Assembly: GCA_964607285.1 (NCBI GenBank)
Contig: CAZSJW010000001.1
Location: 2,514-66,513, forward strand
Length of the DNA: 64,000 bases
Source: an uncultured Pseudomonadales bacterium
Lineage (GTDB): Bacteria > Patescibacteriota > Microgenomatia > UBA1400 > PJMF01
Direction of reading: 5' to 3'
The position numbers were made by a program, and so were the translations under genes. Every line of letters starts with the position of its first letter. Position 1 is the stretch's first letter. Below the pieces are notes generated by a model. That model had not been told where the DNA came from and did no database searches. It saw only the letters and a program-made list of their open reading frames with translations. Shown piece after piece: positions 15,417 through 53,831 of the stretch.

Positions 15417-15800
15417 CTAGAGATACTTGTATCGCCACAATAAAGCGAGGCTGGCACCGAGTGTGTCGTAGCATATGTCACGGGCTGTGGCTGTCCTGCC
15501 AGGTACAAGTGATTGATGGTACTCATCTGAGACAGCGTATACCATGGTCAGTAAAAATGGAATGAGCCATGCAGCGTGTGTTGTAGCATTTGGGTTTGTG
15601 AGGCGATGTGCTCTATGCAGCAAAAGGTATAAGACAGCATACACACCTACATGAGCCATTTTCTTAAAGAAAAACTCATAATTGGATGCTTGAAATGACG
15701 GTAAGGCTTGCTGGGAGGAGAGGAAAAAAATCAATCCTGCCCAACAAACAGGAGGTGCGTAGGCGATAGCCCATTGAAATGTTTGTTGTGCTAGTTTCAT
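15417..15800 (-). CDS. VanZ-like membrane protein
   Basis: 127 aa, 4 TM segments. Motifs K..H...Y and SDEYHQSLVPGRTATARDICYDTLGA are typical of the VanZ family. Confidence 0.7.
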   Translation of the reverse strand: MKLAQQTFQWAIAYAPPVCWAGLIFFLSSQQALPSFQASNYEFFFKKMAHVGVYAVLYLLLHRAHRLTNPNATTHAAWLIPFLLTMVYAVSDEYHQSLVPGRTATARDICYDTLGASLALLWRYKYL

Positions 15801-16969
15801 GTCGGGTACTTTGGAGGCTGTGTATATAGTACAGTTGCACCACCCATCAGCAAAAATCCACTACCCAGTATAGCACCCAGAACTGCACCTTGTGGGATAT
15901 TCCTTTGTCTATATTCTAGAGTTCGCATAGGTTCTGTATGTGCAGAGGTGGTACTTTCTGTGTACTGTTTGAAAAGTATGGGTAGTGCAAGTGGAGGCTT
16001 TTTTTTCTTTGCAGGGGAAAGTAAGGTTCCAGGTGTTGCGGTTGGTGAAGCTTCTATCGTATGAGTGGAAAGTGAGGGGCTGGGGGAGGGAACTGTTGGG
16101 CTTGCAGCTAGAATTGTAGTTTCTGTCTGCCATTCACCTTCGATCAGTAGCAATGGTTCTCCAATGGTGCATGACGTGTACTTCGCTGAGGCAAGCACGA
16201 CGCCTGAACTAGACAGCACGAATACAGTGTCTCCAGTATTATTGAGCATATCTGCAGTCCACTTGATTGAGCTTTCGGCAAGTGGTGGAAGTGACCCTGT
16301 AGTTTGTCTTTGGTTTTGTTGTTCATCTGTGATACGTATTGTGCTGAGATCAAGTATGGTTGTTCCTGTGTTGGTGATGGTGACGTACTCATCTGTATCT
16401 GTTGCAGGGCAAGGGAAAAGCTCGGATATAGAGATTTTTGCTGGTGACGCCGTAGGTGACGGTGTGGGTAGTAGTATAGGACTTGCACTGGGACTTGATG
16501 TCGGTTGCGGTGTTGGTTCACTCAGCATACTTAGGTATGTGCCAGGACTTGGTTCGCTGATTTGCCAAGTGTTTACTGTTCTGGCCCAACTTTTGGCTTG
16601 TTCACTTGCTGAGTAGCTAAATGAATCTGTGATGTCTATTGCAGGTGTGCGCAAGGTGACCCCATCTGCTGCGTTATTCAATTTTGGGTTTTCAAAGGTG
16701 AATACTTTTGTTTCTCCAGGGTTGAGTGTTATATGCAAGGTGAGTAGCAAACTGGGCGAGCTCAGTTCATCCCAGAGTTCCCAATTGGTTAGGTCTATTG
16801 CTTCTGCATCGGGGTTATGGAGCTCGATCCATTCAGGCTCACCACTTGCTGGGTTTGGATGTAGTTCAGTAATGAGGACAGAGGAAAAAACGGGTTTCGC
16901 TCCTGCTACCAAAGCCCAAGTGTAGAACAGGCAAGTCAACATGAAAAACCGAGATACAAACATCTTCAT
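15797..16969 (-). CDS. Surface protein with two lamin-tail-domain (LTD) repeats, Pro/Ser/Thr linkers and a C-terminal TM anchor
   Basis: Signal peptide. LTD1 begins VLITELHPNPASGEPEWIELHNP, LTD2 begins ISISELFPCPATDTDEYVTITNTG. PTPQPTSSPSASP linkers. C-terminal hydrophobic segment GAVLGAILGSGFLLMGGATVLY. Confidence 0.75.
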   Translation of the reverse strand: MKMFVSRFFMLTCLFYTWALVAGAKPVFSSVLITELHPNPASGEPEWIELHNPDAEAIDLTNWELWDELSSPSLLLTLHITLNPGETKVFTFENPKLNNAADGVTLRTPAIDITDSFSYSASEQAKSWARTVNTWQISEPSPGTYLSMLSEPTPQPTSSPSASPILLPTPSPTASPAKISISELFPCPATDTDEYVTITNTGTTILDLSTIRITDEQQNQRQTTGSLPPLAESSIKWTADMLNNTGDTVFVLSSSGVVLASAKYTSCTIGEPLLLIEGEWQTETTILAASPTVPSPSPSLSTHTIEASPTATPGTLLSPAKKKKPPLALPILFKQYTESTTSAHTEPMRTLEYRQRNIPQGAVLGAILGSGFLLMGGATVLYTQPPKYPT

Positions 16970-26841: not shown

Positions 26842-28986
26842 ATGCCCAAATCAGTTCCACAGTTGCTCAGGAAATCACTTAGTTCCCTATTGTTTCACTT
26901 GCCTGTGATTGTGTTGGGCATGTTTTTAGCAGCGTGGTTTACATTCCCTGCTATCACCCAACTGCGAACACACTTCATCGGTGATGGTGGAGATAACTAC
27001 CAGTACGCAGGTTTTCAGTACCTAGTAGCTACTAACATCGATTCTGGCAAGTGGCCGTATGCTGCTTTGCAGAGTTGGTACTATCCAAATGGTTTTGAGT
27101 TTGCTCGTGGGTATGACAGTGTTTTGTCTACACTGGGTGGTGGGTTGTTGGTTTTGTTGACTAGGGATTTAGCCTATAGCTATAACTTAAGCATCCTCTT
27201 CTCCTTCCTTTTCAATTTTTTAGCAGCATACGCGCTGTATTGGAATCTGAGCCGCTCTCGGATGTGGGCAAGTGTGGGTGCGGTGCTGTTTGGTTTCTCG
27301 TTTTATGCACTCGCACGGGCGGGGGGGCATGCGAACTTGTTGCTGATTGGTGGGTTTCCCTTATTCCTTTTGAGTCTGCTGCAGTTGCTACGTAAACAAG
27401 AGTGGCGAGCGGTGCTTCTGTTGGGTTTGGCTAGTATTTTGCTAGTGTTTAGTTCTTTACAGTACGCGCTAATGGCAGTGGCAAGTTTATTGATCGGTAT
27501 ACCACTGGTTGCATTAGTGTATCCAGAAGCAATGGGGGCAGTGCTGTTCAAAAAAATACCAGCTGCGTTTTTGCAGTTAGCGGTCGTAGGATTGTTTGTG
27601 TGTGTGGTGGCTGCACCATTTGTTTGGCCATTTATCCATGCATATCAGGCACAGGATTTTTATCAGCGAGGCGAGTTCGACTTTAGTCCTCGTATGGTGG
27701 ATTTATTGCTGCCAAACCCATATTTTCCTGTTCCCTTGAGTTCGCTATTACCAGTTGTTCCTGGTACGGTGGGGATTGAACAGACGATTGCGCTTGGACC
27801 TGTATTTTTTGTGTTGATTGTTTTTTTGCTGTGGAGGTTTCGCAGGCAGCATGTAGTGGGCTTAGCGGGTTTGGTGCTCACGGTATTTGGCATTTTGGCA
27901 CTAGGCACGCGTAACCCTGAGACAGGCATCATCTTGCCTTACCACTTGCTGAGTTCGGTCTTCCCATTTTCGGCAATTCCTGAGGCTGGTCGGTTTGTGG
28001 TGGTTATGAATGTTGTAGGTGGGGCATTGATTGCATCATATGGCAAGAAGATTTTTCGAGGGCGGGCAGCTCGTGTGTCACTTGGGATGTTTGTCTTAGT
28101 TTTGCTCATTCTTGAACGGTCAAGTTGGGGCAAGTTCTTTCAGCTGCCAGTACCGAGTTTGGGGTTAGCGCAAGCAGTGCAGGCACAACCAGGTGCTGCA
28201 GTCTTGGAGCTGCCACTGTTTGAGCAGCGACAAAGTGTCTCACCTGTGTACTTCCACAAAGCTACCCTCACTGGAGAACCGCACTGGCTGGCGCATACTC
28301 CCCAGGCTATGGCTTTTTTGCAGGGTAATCCTGCGCTGGCGGGGTTGACGTGTTTTGATCGCACGCATTTGACAGGGACGGTGCCAGGGCAAGGTTTGAG
28401 CATTAGCACAGAGGAGCGCGCAGCCTTTTTCAAGTACCTCAAAACTGCAGGTGTTCAAACTGTGGTGATCCGCAGGGATGGAACGCTGTACTGGGATATG
28501 TGTCGTGAAACACTTGCACGGATTGATCAACTTTTCCCACAGTATCTTACTGCTGAAATCACTGCGCAGGGAGCACAGTCAGAGACGCAGATGTTTTGGA
28601 GTGGAGAGGCGTTCACTGGTGGGCTGTACTTCCCAAGTAGTGGAGCTTTAACTATTCATGGCTTTTCCTATATGCCCTATGATGAGCAACCAGAATTGAG
28701 GATTGATGGTCAACAGGTGTCTGCTGAGCAGTGGAGCTATGAAGTTTCAACGCATGAGAGCGGGGAGCGAATGGTCTTTGTTCGTACAGGCGCAGCTGGT
28801 GAGCGACACCAGGTATCTGCTGGAGCTACGCTGGAAACGACTATTGCTAAAACGCCGCAACACCGGGGGGTGCTGACACTTTGGTACACGTATGAGCCAG
28901 TGGGTGCTGAAGAGCTACAGCTACAGGATGGAGTAGTTACAAAAGTGTATGAGGAGTCGGCTGTGGAGGTGTGGCGGATTGAGTGA
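26842..28986 (+). CDS. 714-aa polytopic membrane protein, GT-C/YfhO-like candidate
   Basis: ATG at 26842 preferred, because the tracked start 26704 overlaps the divergent gene. At least 12 hydrophobic segments followed by a ~230-aa soluble C-terminal region. Family not verified. Confidence 0.7.
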   Translation: MPKSVPQLLRKSLSSLLFHLPVIVLGMFLAAWFTFPAITQLRTHFIGDGGDNYQYAGFQYLVATNIDSGKWPYAALQSWYYPNGFEFARGYDSVLSTLGGGLLVLLTRDLAYSYNLSILFSFLFNFLAAYALYWNLSRSRMWASVGAVLFGFSFYALARAGGHANLLLIGGFPLFLLSLLQLLRKQEWRAVLLLGLASILLVFSSLQYALMAVASLLIGIPLVALVYPEAMGAVLFKKIPAAFLQLAVVGLFVCVVAAPFVWPFIHAYQAQDFYQRGEFDFSPRMVDLLLPNPYFPVPLSSLLPVVPGTVGIEQTIALGPVFFVLIVFLLWRFRRQHVVGLAGLVLTVFGILALGTRNPETGIILPYHLLSSVFPFSAIPEAGRFVVVMNVVGGALIASYGKKIFRGRAARVSLGMFVLVLLILERSSWGKFFQLPVPSLGLAQAVQAQPGAAVLELPLFEQRQSVSPVYFHKATLTGEPHWLAHTPQAMAFLQGNPALAGLTCFDRTHLTGTVPGQGLSISTEERAAFFKYLKTAGVQTVVIRRDGTLYWDMCRETLARIDQLFPQYLTAEITAQGAQSETQMFWSGEAFTGGLYFPSSGALTIHGFSYMPYDEQPELRIDGQQVSAEQWSYEVSTHESGERMVFVRTGAAGERHQVSAGATLETTIAKTPQHRGVLTLWYTYEPVGAEELQLQDGVVTKVYEESAVEVWRIE

Positions 28987-29033
28987 GTGTGGTAGTATGT
29001 GATGAGTATAGTGTTTTGTGTAAAGGAGCAGAT

Positions 29034-29261
29034 ATGAACCAGTATAAGGAAATGTATTCAGCAACAATGCAGCGGCATGCTAATATGGTACTCAATGACT
29101 GGCTGATGAACCCAGAAACTCCGTTGGAGAAAATTCAAGAAGAAGAAGGTCAAATTAAATTAGCAATAGCCCGTGTTGAAAGAGGGGAAGTGACTTCTGA
29201 GCACAAAGTTGAGGAGTTGAAGCAGCGGTATACTGCTGTTTTGGGGGTGAATTGGAGTTAG
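29034..29261 (+). CDS. Small hypothetical protein
   Basis: 75 aa from the ATG at 29034, with SD AAAGGAG. The tracked upstream GTG extension overlaps the previous gene. Confidence 0.5.
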   Translation: MNQYKEMYSATMQRHANMVLNDWLMNPETPLEKIQEEEGQIKLAIARVERGEVTSEHKVEELKQRYTAVLGVNWS

Positions 29262-29314
29262 CTTTATTGTGTAGACTTGTGTGGCTTTAGCACTCATAGA
29301 TCAGAAATCGTAAC

Positions 29315-29397
29315 AAAAAACCCCCTCATCATTGCTGATGAGGGGGGCTAAACTACGGCTTCTACTGGTGTAGCGAGTGAGCCAGAACTACGAACTT
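29315..29397 (-). ncRNA. Candidate ~83-nt small RNA with its own promoter and intrinsic terminator
   Basis: On the - strand: TTGTCA (29431..29426), 16-nt spacer, TATAAT (29409..29404). About 50 nt of unique sequence follows, then an 11-bp GC-rich hairpin (29347..29321) and U6 (29320..29315). No ORF. Family unknown. Confidence 0.45.
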
Positions 29398-29525
29398 CTT
29401 AAAATTATACTAAATTTCTATTGCCTGACAATTAGTGAATTCCAGGCTCTAGTCAGTTGTGGAGGCGACCCCGCCATGGCGGGGCAAGCCAGAGTTCGTA
29501 GTTCTGGCTCTACACCGGTAGCGCC
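29357..29525. repeat. Long imperfect inverted repeat (arms ~39 and ~32 nt, 98-nt spacer)
   Basis: Left arm 29357..29395 (GGCTTCTACTGGTGTAGCGAGTGAGCCAGAACTACGAAC) pairs with right arm 29494..29525 (GTTCGTAGTTCTGGCTCTACACCGGTAGCGCC). The core of 17 bp is perfect. Confidence 0.85.
29404..29431 (-). promoter_or_regulatory. Sigma70-type promoter TTGTCA-16-TATAAT inside the loop of the 29357..29525 inverted repeat
   Basis: Read directly from the reverse complement of 29404..29431. Confidence 0.5.
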
Positions 29526-29904
29526 CCCACAGCTGACAGGTGTAGTGTATTTTCTGATCTTTACGCAAACTGTAGCGTTCTTGTTGCAGCAAGTGCTTTT
29601 GTGGCATGCACTGGTGTTTGATCTGTTGCAAACTTTTGGGTTTTCAACTTGGTGGTGATGTTATTACGCGGTTGTAGCAGAGCAGTTTAGCTTACTGGAA
29701 ATTGAAGGGTTGGTTGATAAAACAGTTTAACTAGCGTATGAGCGTTGTAGTTCATTTCAGCTATGATGGACATTTTGTGGTGTGGTGAGAATGTTGAGGA
29801 TTGGGATAAGATTAATAGTGGGTGTATTGGCAAAAAGGGGATTGTGGTGGAGGAAGTAAAGAAAAAGTTGAGATTGTAGAGGTTTTTGAGCATGATGAGG
29901 CAAT

Positions 29905-29934
29905 AAAAAGCCCGTCTTGGGGACGGGCTTTTCA
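29905..29934 (-). terminator. Intrinsic terminator downstream of 29951..30604
   Basis: Stem AGCCCGTC/GACGGGCT with a U-run on the - strand. Near-identical in design and sequence to the terminator at 23509..23538. Confidence 0.7.
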
Positions 29935-29950
29935 GTGAGTGTTATGGGGG

Positions 29951-30604
29951 CTACGGTGAGGAAAACAAAGCAATCTTGGTCACGAATTCCTGAAACCAGG
30001 TAGCACAAAGTACATTTCGCGACAAAGCTTGTTCAGCGTATGTCACACAATAACTTGTGCGTTGCTCTGATGTCAGGAGTTGCTCGGCTCGCTGGAATGC
30101 CCATGCGAGGTGTTCTGGCGTGATATAGGACTGGTGCGGGTTCAATCCCGCAGTAGCCAATCCATTCACACTTTCACACTGCACAACGAGGGGGTGACCC
30201 AGGGCCACGTTCCCCTCGTCTAATTTCCAAACGCTTCCGTTGACCCATCCCGTTCGGTCGGCCATAGCATCAACTTCTGCGCGTCCGTTGGCTTGGCACG
30301 CGCTGTGTGCATTTGCTGGGTTGGTCGAGCCGCCCCAGGGGCCGATAACCAGGACAGTGGCGTTTTCCAGGCATTGCCAATTGTCCTTGGTAGATGTGGT
30401 TACACCCGCTCCAGACTCGTTTGTACCCTGGTAAACCAGGGCGTCTTGACCTGTACAAACGCGTTCGGTAAACACCCCAGGTGTTCCTGGGGCGGGGTCA
30501 GGAGACCCCGATTGCGCCTGTGCGGCTGGCGCGACCGGTCCAAGCAGGACAACGGCTAAAATGGCACCCAAAATGAGGCCAAGGACGATTTGATAGCGCT
30601 TCAT
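29951..30604 (-). CDS. Secreted Cys-containing protein (217 aa)
   Basis: ATG at 30604 is preceded by AAGGAG. Signal peptide MKRYQIVLGLILGAILAVVLLGPVAPAAQA. Multiple Cys. Looks GC-richer than neighbours. The tracked 270-aa ORF has an unlikely N-extension. Confidence 0.8.
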   Translation of the reverse strand: MKRYQIVLGLILGAILAVVLLGPVAPAAQAQSGSPDPAPGTPGVFTERVCTGQDALVYQGTNESGAGVTTSTKDNWQCLENATVLVIGPWGGSTNPANAHSACQANGRAEVDAMADRTGWVNGSVWKLDEGNVALGHPLVVQCESVNGLATAGLNPHQSYITPEHLAWAFQRAEQLLTSEQRTSYCVTYAEQALSRNVLCATWFQEFVTKIALFSSP

Positions 30605-52096: not shown

Positions 52097-52170
52097 CGGG
52101 GAGTAGTTCAGATGGCTAGAATGCTCGCATGGGGTGCGAGTGGTCGCAGGTTCGAGTCCTGTCTCCCCGA
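52097..52170 (+). tRNA. tRNA-Pro (anticodon GGG)
   Basis: Hand-folded cloverleaf. Acceptor CGGGGAG/CTCCCCG, D-arm with GG, anticodon stem CTCGC/GCGAG, loop AT-GGG-GT, 5-nt variable loop, T-arm GCAGG-TTCGAGT-CCTGT, discriminator A. CCA not encoded. Confidence 0.9.
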
Positions 52171-53831
52171 CATTCAAGGACAGAGGGTAGTTTTGCAATG
52201 GTTTCGAACTTAGGATTCCATTGGTGAGTCAATACTTTTTTGTCCTTTATAGTGAAGTTCAAAAAGACCATTCGAATGATACTGTCTGTTGCTAGGTGAT
52301 TATCGCTTGTTTTCAGAGTAGAAACGATGTTTTTGATAAAGTTCGAAAAGTCTGTGTAAGACATCACTTTTTCTTTGAGTAAAGATTGAGCATCAACTCG
52401 CTGGCTCTTTACCTGTGCCAGTTTAGCTTCTAATTGCTCGATTTCATCCCTGGCTTGGAGTATTTTTTCTCTTGCTACCTTGATTGACTTGTCATCACCC
52501 TCAAGTCTCACCACGATAAGCTGTTGGTCTGAAATAATTGTTTCCAGGTCGTTTATTTGTTTGGAAATAGAGCGTTGGTCGCTTTCCAACTCTTTGGCAG
52601 AGCTAACTAATTGGCGTTTGGCATCTGCCACGTACTGGTTGTAGGCTTTTTCGTCTATACCGATGCCACCTGCTAATACCTCATAAACATACTCAAAAAT
52701 AACTTTTGCCCTGATTTCTCGTAAACCCTTCACCTTGTGAGAATAACAACCGCCAGTGGAACACTTTATTCGTAGATAAGTGATAAGTGACTCTGGTTTA
52801 TTTTTATTGAGATATGTTGTCATCAGGTTACCGCAGTACCCACACACCACCATCTGGTCTAGCAGTGGAGTTGCTTTGTCCTGAGCCTTCTTATAGCCCC
52901 TTTTACCGTCCAGAATGTTTCGCAAGCGTAAGTAGTCCAGATATGACATCGCAGGTGTAAATAAGTGGTCGAACTTAGTCAGGTCAACCATATTTTTTCC
53001 ATACACGTAGTAGCCAGTATAGGAGGGGTCGAGAAACATTGCTGAGACGAGTTGTTTCGTCATCCTGGTTTTTTCGCCATTTTGACTGTAGTTGTTTTCA
53101 TTGAGGTACGATGCAATCACATCTTGTGATTTGCCTTCGATACCCATCTGAAACGCTTGCTGGATGAGTTCAAAGTTTTTCCCATCTTTACGTTGGCGTT
53201 TATTGATTACTTTGTAACCTCGCAGAGCCTTGTTGCCGATGGCTTTGCCTTCACCGATAATGTTTTCATTGCCTCTTGAAACGTTTATGGAGAGGTTATC
53301 ACTGTAGGCTTTGGCGAGTAGAAACTGTAAGCCAAGGGTCATCAGTCCATTCGGGTCACGCTGAAAAGAAAACTGTGGAAACTTGAGGTCTTTGATAATA
53401 CCTCGGTCGATTAGGTCAATAATCTCACCTGCATCCTTCATATTTCTCCCAAGGCGGTCTGGATGCCAGCAGATGATAGCGTTATACGATTTCTTAGACT
53501 TGATTTCGTCCATCATTTCTTCAAATACCTCACGGTTAGCCGATTTTCGGGCTGATTTTTCTTCCTTGAGAACATCTACCACCTTCAAACCCTCACGCTT
53601 GGCTAGAGCTTTACTGTCTTTGATTTGGTCTGGAATGGAGCGTTCTTGACGTTCTACTTGCTTGCCATCTTGGTTTTTCTTTTTACCCTTAGTAGATTTA
53701 CGAGCGTAAATGACATACACAGGTGGCTTGTCATCAGGGAGTGGTTTTCCCGCCTTTTCTAAGCGGTCAAAAACGATGCTTTGAGCTATTTCAAAGACTT
53801 GCTGTTTATATTCTGCATTGGTGTCTGGCAT
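52116..53831 (-). CDS. Large serine recombinase (phage-integrase type)
   Basis: N-terminal resolvase domain VIYARKSTKG...SIPDQ...DRLGRN. Recombinase domain. Zn-ribbon CGYCGN...KCSTGGC. Coiled coil. The last ~18 codons run antisense through the 3' part of tRNA-Pro. Confidence 0.88.
   Translation of the reverse strand: MPDTNAEYKQQVFEIAQSIVFDRLEKAGKPLPDDKPPVYVIYARKSTKGKKKNQDGKQVERQERSIPDQIKDSKALAKREGLKVVDVLKEEKSARKSANREVFEEMMDEIKSKKSYNAIICWHPDRLGRNMKDAGEIIDLIDRGIIKDLKFPQFSFQRDPNGLMTLGLQFLLAKAYSDNLSINVSRGNENIIGEGKAIGNKALRGYKVINKRQRKDGKNFELIQQAFQMGIEGKSQDVIASYLNENNYSQNGEKTRMTKQLVSAMFLDPSYTGYYVYGKNMVDLTKFDHLFTPAMSYLDYLRLRNILDGKRGYKKAQDKATPLLDQMVVCGYCGNLMTTYLNKNKPESLITYLRIKCSTGGCYSHKVKGLREIRAKVIFEYVYEVLAGGIGIDEKAYNQYVADAKRQLVSSAKELESDQRSISKQINDLETIISDQQLIVVRLEGDDKSIKVAREKILQARDEIEQLEAKLAQVKSQRVDAQSLLKEKVMSYTDFSNFIKNIVSTLKTSDNHLATDSIIRMVFLNFTIKDKKVLTHQWNPKFETIAKLPSVLECRGDRTRTCDHSHPMRAF

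Follow-up and report, generated by a model that had tools for sequence, protein, structure and literature searches.

Rho acts downstream of intrinsic terminators in E. coli and mycobacteria, as stated in a passage of 10.1101/2022.07.21.500918 that cites Wang et al. It also acts on pyrimidine-rich antisense RNA (PMC13323073), and a genome-wide purine bias of the coding strand renders antisense RNA rich in pyrimidines and sensitive to Rho (Dierksheide et al. 2026, PMC13323073). The bias is mild and gene-wide in B. subtilis, where the coding strand is 54% purine (PMC13323073). The RUT definition used by RhoTermPredict is a 78-nt window with C/G >1 and a C every 11–13 nt, and a C/G of at least 3 is rare among its validated E. 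coli predictions. The stretch of DNA analyzed here, called the window throughout, is 64,000 nucleotides (64 kb) long and contains a tract that is far more G-depleted on the minus strand than described rut sites require. Our best reading of this tract, which we hold tentatively and at somewhat less than an even chance, is a rut-like fail-safe terminator that would guard a convergent operon from antisense read-through.

The tract spans 29772–29890 and was defined by base counts, a skew scan, and folding. Its 119 nt contain 45 G, 37 T, 36 A, and 1 C on the plus strand, with the single C at 29831. This recount agrees with the base composition given in the original prediction, and the less strict C depletion that was described back to about 29700 was also found, with 9 C in the 191 nt from 29700 to 29890. 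The milder zone (29700–29771, minus strand) is the upstream part of the gene relic described below. The minus-strand RNA of the tract is 38% C and 68% pyrimidine with one G in 119 nt, and the plus strand, which is the coding strand, is 68% purine. There are 29 YC dinucleotides on the minus strand of the tract compared to a window mean of 13.1 (sd 4.2). The tract is the longest run with no more than one C in the window; the next independent run is 67 nt at 28962–29028, and the longest run with no more than one G is 46 nt. The number of C per 119-nt segment averages 24.3 (sd 5.1) over the 64 kb, the lowest value of 1 belongs to the tract, and the next independent minima are 7 (at 28928) and 11. 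When both strands were scanned for maximal segments of C>G skew, the tract came first with a score of 25 compared to 17 and 14. The sliding-window skew check proposed for this locus thereby returned a unique tract, and similar tracts are not common within the window. A binomial estimate with C at 20% gave approximately 5e-11 per position, which excludes a chance origin. An independent assembly (L001, GCA_020049755.1) contains the same sequence with one mismatch elsewhere, and homologous tracts are present in other samples; therefore, the tract is not an assembly artefact. A tandem or dispersed repeat origin was rejected because TRF found no repeat and the tract occurs only once in the window. 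Rfam at the gathering threshold matched one tRNA and nothing else in the 64 kb, and with E values up to 10 it gave only chance-level, terminator-like matches between 28900 and 30050.

The second most C-poor stretch of the window, 28963–29028, has 1 C and consists of the last 24 nt of a 760-aa protein gene and a 42-nt spacer. Synonymous codons in this gene tail do not avoid C (P = 0.2–0.37). The plus strand as a whole has more G than C (15,318 versus 13,050) and more T than A throughout. The C fraction is about 0.18–0.21 in plus-strand genes and 0.21–0.28 in minus-strand genes. The strand composition of the whole window looks like a replication-strand skew.

The tract coincides with the end of a decayed plus-strand gene. 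A tblastn search with the 409-aa protein of a relative (L004) aligned amino acids 312–364 to 29581–29739 in frame 1 and amino acids 370–409 to 29754–29876 in frame 3 with a combined E of 2e-12. The relic (29590–29879, plus strand) corresponds to the last ~95 codons of the 409-aa gene. It has in-frame stops at 29656–29658 and 29728–29730 and a frameshift between 29739 and 29754. The tail at 29754–29876 is still open and ends with a TAG stop at 29877–29879. Collinear blastn blocks match 29313–29588 to L004 2398–2124 (85% identity) and 29590–29937 to L004 1151–806. These blocks meet at a clean deletion junction (29588–29590) where 972 nt of L004 (1152–2123) are missing, comprising 30 nt of 5' UTR and codons 1–314 of the 409-aa gene. 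The order of the 760-aa gene, the conserved spacer, the 409-aa gene, the terminator, and the 217-aa gene is kept between the window and L004. Homology in conserved synteny and the disabling lesions together identify 29590–29879 as a pseudogene, and by the same alignments the tract comprises the final ~36 codons of the inactivated gene and 11 nt of its 3' UTR. DNA identity between the relic and L004 is 67–77%; the last 20 codons are the best-kept portion at 82%, and the remainder is 67% identical, which indicates that the decay is recent relative to the species split. A word-index protein search with the 409-aa protein returned the L004 protein alone, and an exhaustive search found 361 remote homologues at E ≤ 1e-3. 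A family this widespread makes the intact 409-aa gene the ancestral state. In genome scans, an oddly composed apparent spacer can thus be the tail of a decayed gene.

The original prediction had considered a minus-strand ORF of 68 aa (29687–29893) to be the sole ORF of the interval. A plus-strand ORF at 29763–29879 was overlooked; it is the tail of the relic, is homologous to the intact 409-aa gene, and ends with KGIVVEEVKKKLRL before the stop codon, where the L004 counterpart ends with KGIVLEEVKKKLGL. The 68-aa ORF was rejected as a gene. Its start codon is not conserved, the ATG being ACA in L004, where there is no alternative in-frame start. It has no Shine-Dalgarno sequence and lies antisense to a frame with proven family homology. 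A long open frame on the minus strand is expected because only TAA can stop a frame in G-less sequence. The conservation check proposed for this ORF therefore exposed it as spurious.

A bidirectional intrinsic terminator adjoins the tract at 29901–29937. Its stem (29910–29916/29922–29928) is flanked by an A-tract and a T-tract, and UUUUUAUU follows the hairpin on the minus strand. The predicted folding energies are −20.1 kcal/mol on the minus strand and −19.9 kcal/mol on the plus strand (z −6.7 and −4.0), and no shuffled sequence equals them. The stem differs from its L004 counterpart by compensatory changes (GCCCGTC/GACGGGC versus GCCCCGC/GCGGGGC). A simple terminator scan of the window did not list the hairpin at 29910–29928. 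The folds and their covariation indicate that the hairpin is a bidirectional intrinsic terminator serving both the convergent 217-aa gene on the minus strand and the relic or operon on the plus strand. The 217-aa gene (29951–30604, minus strand) encodes a protein with a predicted signal peptide and has AAGGAG upstream. The tract begins ~12 nt past the U-tract of this gene's terminator on the minus strand, so the claim that it lies directly downstream of an intrinsic terminator stands, and a read-through transcript from the 217-aa gene would carry it. None of the three proteins (217, 760, and 409 aa) has a Pfam family, and neither do the remote homologues of the 409-aa protein. Most proteins around the locus are without a Pfam family; the genes of the window include SecY, RNase Y, DUF4012, FtsEX, and a Mur ligase.

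Relatives were used to separate the effect of the gene from the effect of its position. The lineage had no match in a representative genome collection or in the JGI metagenome collection, and protein searches with the 217-aa and 760-aa proteins found homologues in two other lineages only. The 217-aa homologues are 56% identical, and their gene is always convergent with a C-free tail. In lineage B (L004, L008, and L009), an intact 409-aa gene lies between the 760-aa homologue and a convergent 216-aa gene. The homologous tail in L004 (843–958) spans 116 nt and has a single G on that strand, which is 1 C on the coding strand. The number of C per 60 nt is 8–21 along the L004 gene and falls to 1 and 0 at its end. 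The window and L004 tracts differ by 23 base substitutions and 5 gap columns with almost no C gained. The absence of C predates the inactivation of the gene and is not a by-product of the protein. Lineage C (L005 and L006) is without the 409-aa gene, and its counterpart of the 760-aa gene encodes 710 aa and stops 111 nt short of the convergent gene. The strand opposite this 710-aa tail includes one stretch of 76 nt with a single G and one of 105 nt with 3 G. There are 2 C in the last 60 coding nt of the L005 gene compared to 5 in the window orthologue and 10 in the L004 orthologue. The L005 substitutions are not simple C-to-T changes; examples are TCG/CCA to GAG and GCT/ACG to AAA. The tract is the most extreme 100-nt segment of the available sequence in all three lineages, with values of 1, 1, and 3 compared to next-lowest values of 4, 12, and 8. 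The check on conservation in relatives thus found a C-free or C-poor tail at this position in both other lineages. Two unrelated genes avoid C in their synonymous codons only where they adjoin the terminator, which ties the composition to this position in a comparison of three lineages that amount to two independent events in evolution. Among the final 120 nt of each window gene, the lowest C content was 13% and no gene end is comparable, which shows that a C-free tail is not a general design of convergent junctions here. These data point to selection on the sequence adjoining the shared bidirectional terminator.

The contribution of the encoded protein was evaluated at the codon level. The number of C-containing codons per 36-codon in-frame window is 19.4 ± 3.4 with a minimum of 10 (16,118 windows from 48 window genes), and the relic tail has 2 per 36. 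Synonymous codon choice was tested over 36 codons with the amino acids fixed and each species' own codon usage. The resulting P values, which are post hoc and suggestive because the tails were chosen after inspection, were 6e-4 for the window relic (2 seen, 9.0 expected), 1.6e-4 for the L004 409-aa tail (3 seen, 10.2 expected), and 5e-4 for the L005 710-aa tail (6 seen, 12.3 expected), which adjoins the terminator in that lineage. The control tails of the 760-aa orthologues, which lie away from the terminator, gave P = 0.37 in the window and 0.29 in L004. The protein sequence is also affected. A KGI motif is invariant across the tails of the 409-aa family, which makes the tail a genuine part of the protein family. 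The position two residues after KGI is Pro in 6 of 7 aligned remote homologues and Glu in this lineage. The residues that require C (A, H, P, Q, and T) make up 11–28% of the homologue tails, 6% of the L004 tail, and 0% of the window tail. The original prediction had thought a codon effect unlikely to explain the skew, and this premise was too strong because the amino acid composition of the plus-strand tail supplies part of it. A pure amino acid or codon effect was ruled out: the synonymous-site tests oppose it, and the relic tail falls below every in-frame window of the 48 genes. A simple deamination bias is an unlikely source because T and A are nearly equal in the tract and the substitution patterns do not fit.

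These results also bear on the idea that the tract has no present function and is the tail of a recently orphaned pseudogene that keeps its ancestral composition. The composition would then derive from an ancestral tail rich in acidic residues, Val, Lys, and Gly together with locally biased mutation, such as C loss on the strand displaced by R-loops where the two units converge. The gene has clearly been inactivated, and with 67% identity to L004 retained over the rest of the relic, inheritance is enough to account for the window copy. Amino acid composition by itself already makes the orthologous 760-aa tail poor in C. However, synonymous avoidance of C occurs in two unrelated intact genes only where they adjoin the terminator, the Pro conserved in the family was replaced, the L005 changes are not simple C-to-T transitions, and T is not enriched over A (37 versus 36). 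We consider this explanation unlikely.

The rut-like fail-safe terminator remains the best reading, and the avoidance of C tracking position rather than gene lends it comparative support. The minus-strand RNA would be the likeliest beneficiary of selection. If polymerase passed the hairpin of the 217-aa gene, ~120–190 nt of untranslated, G-free, C-rich, and structure-free RNA would be made. Such RNA would be a preferred loading substrate for the Rho hexamer, and Rho would release polymerase before it entered the convergent operon in the antisense direction. The host gene is dead in the window, yet the element would still be intact. The composition was compared to the RUT definition. The best 78 nt (29779–29856, minus strand) contain 34 C and 1 G, giving a C/G of 34, and the C spacing is present. 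The minimum free energy of the minus-strand RNA is 0 kcal/mol in the window, −1.3 kcal/mol in L004, and 0 kcal/mol in L005. Both the rut-like, C-rich, G-free composition and the unstructured minus-strand RNA that had been predicted were thus recovered. The RNA would be free of ribosomes because it lies downstream of the 217-aa stop codon and the hairpin.

Other data do not favor the rut-like reading. Scoring of pause sites covered the GG-N8-YG motif, which does not occur within 150 nt downstream (29771–29622, minus strand). A tblastn search with an approximate E. coli Rho query found no match in the 64-kb window or in the few contigs of the relatives. The need for a back-up is not obvious because the intrinsic terminator looks strong. 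The coding-strand purine content of the window genes is 51.5%, which is no sign of the strong Rho pressure reported in Bacilli. In all three lineages the tract also forms the final ~100 nt of the plus-strand operon mRNA just ahead of its terminator, so selection on either strand would fit the data.

Selection could instead act on the plus strand if the last ~100 nt of the operon mRNA before its own terminator must be C-free and rich in G, A, and U. Possible reasons include binding of a protein or a pyrimidine-rich sRNA, ribosome tethering through SD-like GGAGG, Rho avoidance on the sense RNA, and control of mRNA 3'-end stability. In that case the window copy would be a leftover whose role ended with the death of the gene. 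The position of the tract is consistent with this proposal: it ends 11–21 nt before the plus-strand terminator in all three lineages and includes the short 3' UTR. GGAGG-like motifs recur as GGTGGAGGAAG in the window, GTTGGAGGAGG in L004, and GGGAGGGA and GGGGGGAGGA in L005, and the last 20 codons are the best conserved DNA of the relic. Against these points, no known mechanism demands a C-free 3' end, the predicted folding of the RNA is no stronger than that of shuffled sequences (z −0.47), the G-quadruplex potential is weak, and such a 3' end occurs in no other window gene on either strand. We regard selection on the plus strand as rather unlikely.

A plus-strand DNA or RNA G-quadruplex with a regulatory role was also evaluated, since the original prediction had pointed to such potential. 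The tract has many GG, GGG, and GGGG blocks and one two-tetrad motif at 29820–29847. A G-quadruplex call takes four runs of three or more G with short loops or a G4Hunter score of at least about 1.5. The tract has three runs of three or more G in 119 nt, contains no canonical motif even when loops of up to 12 nt are allowed, and peaks at a G4Hunter score of 1.28. The potential is therefore weak, and stronger sites exist elsewhere in the window, where G4Hunter reaches 2.12. Two-tetrad motifs number 78 over the two strands of the window, and L005 does not keep the G runs at the same positions. The G-run count and the G4Hunter score led us to reject the G-quadruplex as the main explanation, and a regulatory quadruplex here is extremely unlikely. 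The strongest G4Hunter signal of the window lies at 16059–16103 on the plus strand, inside the minus-strand gene 15797–16969.

The G-free, C-rich minus-strand RNA could also be a platform for a partner other than Rho. The partner could be a poly(C)-binding KH or cold-shock-type protein or a 3' exonuclease that enters at the tract and trims to the hairpin, or the RNA could be a CCUCC anti-SD-like sponge or regulator. The compositional and positional evidence is identical to that for the rut reading, CCUCC motifs occur in all three lineages, and an RNase Y with a KH domain is encoded in the window. However, CCUCC is expected by chance in a three-letter composition, no minus-strand promoter was seen between the terminator and the tract, and there is no specific evidence in favor of this partner role, which we judge to be very unlikely.

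The conserved block on the other side of the deletion junction has features of its own. The non-coding segment 29313–29588 (minus strand; L004 2124–2398) is 276 nt with 85% identity, and the flanking proteins of the two species are only 56–64% identical. It is predicted to form a long hairpin with a consensus energy of about −98 kcal/mol. Every one of the 78 predicted pairs is retained in the two species, with compensatory double changes at 4 and single changes that preserve a wobble at 7. The core of the hairpin is a perfect 18-nt inverted repeat (29379–29396/29493–29510) with a further 12-nt arm (29362–29373/29510–29521), and L004 has a C-to-T change in one arm of the repeat and the matching G-to-A change in the other. 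A sigma-70-like promoter (TTGTCA-16-TATAAT, 29431..29404) is conserved in L004, and the block ends with a strong intrinsic terminator (29346..29321 plus T6). Transcription from this promoter to the terminator would yield an sRNA of ~85 nt, and species B carries a second copy of its last 49 nt with 100% identity (L002 9200–9248). Rfam had no match for 29313–29588. The block is probably a structured small RNA locus. Within it, 29455–29528 (minus strand) looks tRNA-like by eye: an acceptor-like helix of 7 bp (GGGGGCG/CGCCUCC) includes a G3.U70 pair, and the discriminator is A. A T-arm-like GCGGGUUCAACCCCCGU occurs in L004, and its place in the window is taken by another hairpin with compensated pairing. 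Neither ARAGORN nor Rfam called a tRNA in this segment.

Additional features were noted elsewhere in the window. A 75-aa ORF at 29035–29261 (plus strand) has a good Shine-Dalgarno sequence (AAAGGAG) and no Pfam match. It sits in a ~290-nt segment that is absent from L004, and the 42-nt spacer before it (28987–29028) is C-free. In L004, the hairpin follows 35 nt past the stop codon of the 760-aa homologue. The sole tRNA gene of the window is tRNA-Pro(GGG) at 52097–52171. Its 3' part overlaps the end of an opposite-strand gene for a 571-aa large serine recombinase (52116–53831; Resolvase and Recombinase), an overlap typical of a mobile element integrated at a tRNA gene.

The unusual property of this locus is the near-total exclusion of one base over ~120 nt, antisense within the coding sequence of two unrelated proteins, that survives the loss of the host gene. 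A stronger formulation, which we consider improbable, is that a nucleotide constraint tied to position in the flank of a conserved secreted-protein gene terminator recodes two unrelated C-termini and outlives its host gene. Such a constraint may have removed every residue that requires C, including the family-conserved Pro, and kept more than 100 nt of one strand nearly free of a single base. Should the rut reading hold, the tract would be an unusually clean natural termination signal on the antisense strand of a coding region, with a visible cost to protein sequence and codon choice and with retention past the deletion of the gene. It would provide a short and almost ideal Rho substrate free of G, from an uncultivated lineage absent from reference genome sets, and a concrete case for Rho avoidance or recruitment shaping the composition of a coding strand. 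If Rho is not involved, a one-base exclusion over about 120 nt at a fixed position would be without a described mechanism. If the lineage has no Rho, or if the element acts on the plus strand or as DNA, it would represent a novel type of cis element whose defining feature is a missing nucleotide.

The G-less cassette is an artificial laboratory transcription template with no G in the transcript, and we know of no natural regulatory use for it. It is a compositional analogue only of the tract, whose minus-strand transcript would be nearly GTP-independent with one G per 119 nt. The locus resembles the bidirectional intrinsic terminators of convergent genes in its GC hairpin with A-tract and T-tract flanks, its two convergent units, and its compensatory stem changes; the terminator here is ordinary, whereas the adjoining C-free tract is the unusual part. 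The coding-strand purine bias (PMC13323073) shares with the tract a purine-rich coding strand, a C/U-rich antisense strand, and synonymous codons shaped by termination. However, the tract is an abrupt extreme confined to ~120 nt at the end of a single gene, in a window whose genes average 51.5% purine. The closest likeness is to fail-safe rut sites, which the tract matches in being predicted to be untranslated, C-rich, G-poor, unstructured, at least 78 nt long, and ~12 nt past a hairpin U-tract at a convergent junction where read-through yields antisense RNA. The tract is a single site in 64 kb and not a general feature, and it differs from described rut sites by lying antisense within a recoded protein-coding tail and by its more extreme composition, with a C/G of 34–45 and a near absence of G over 116–119 nt.
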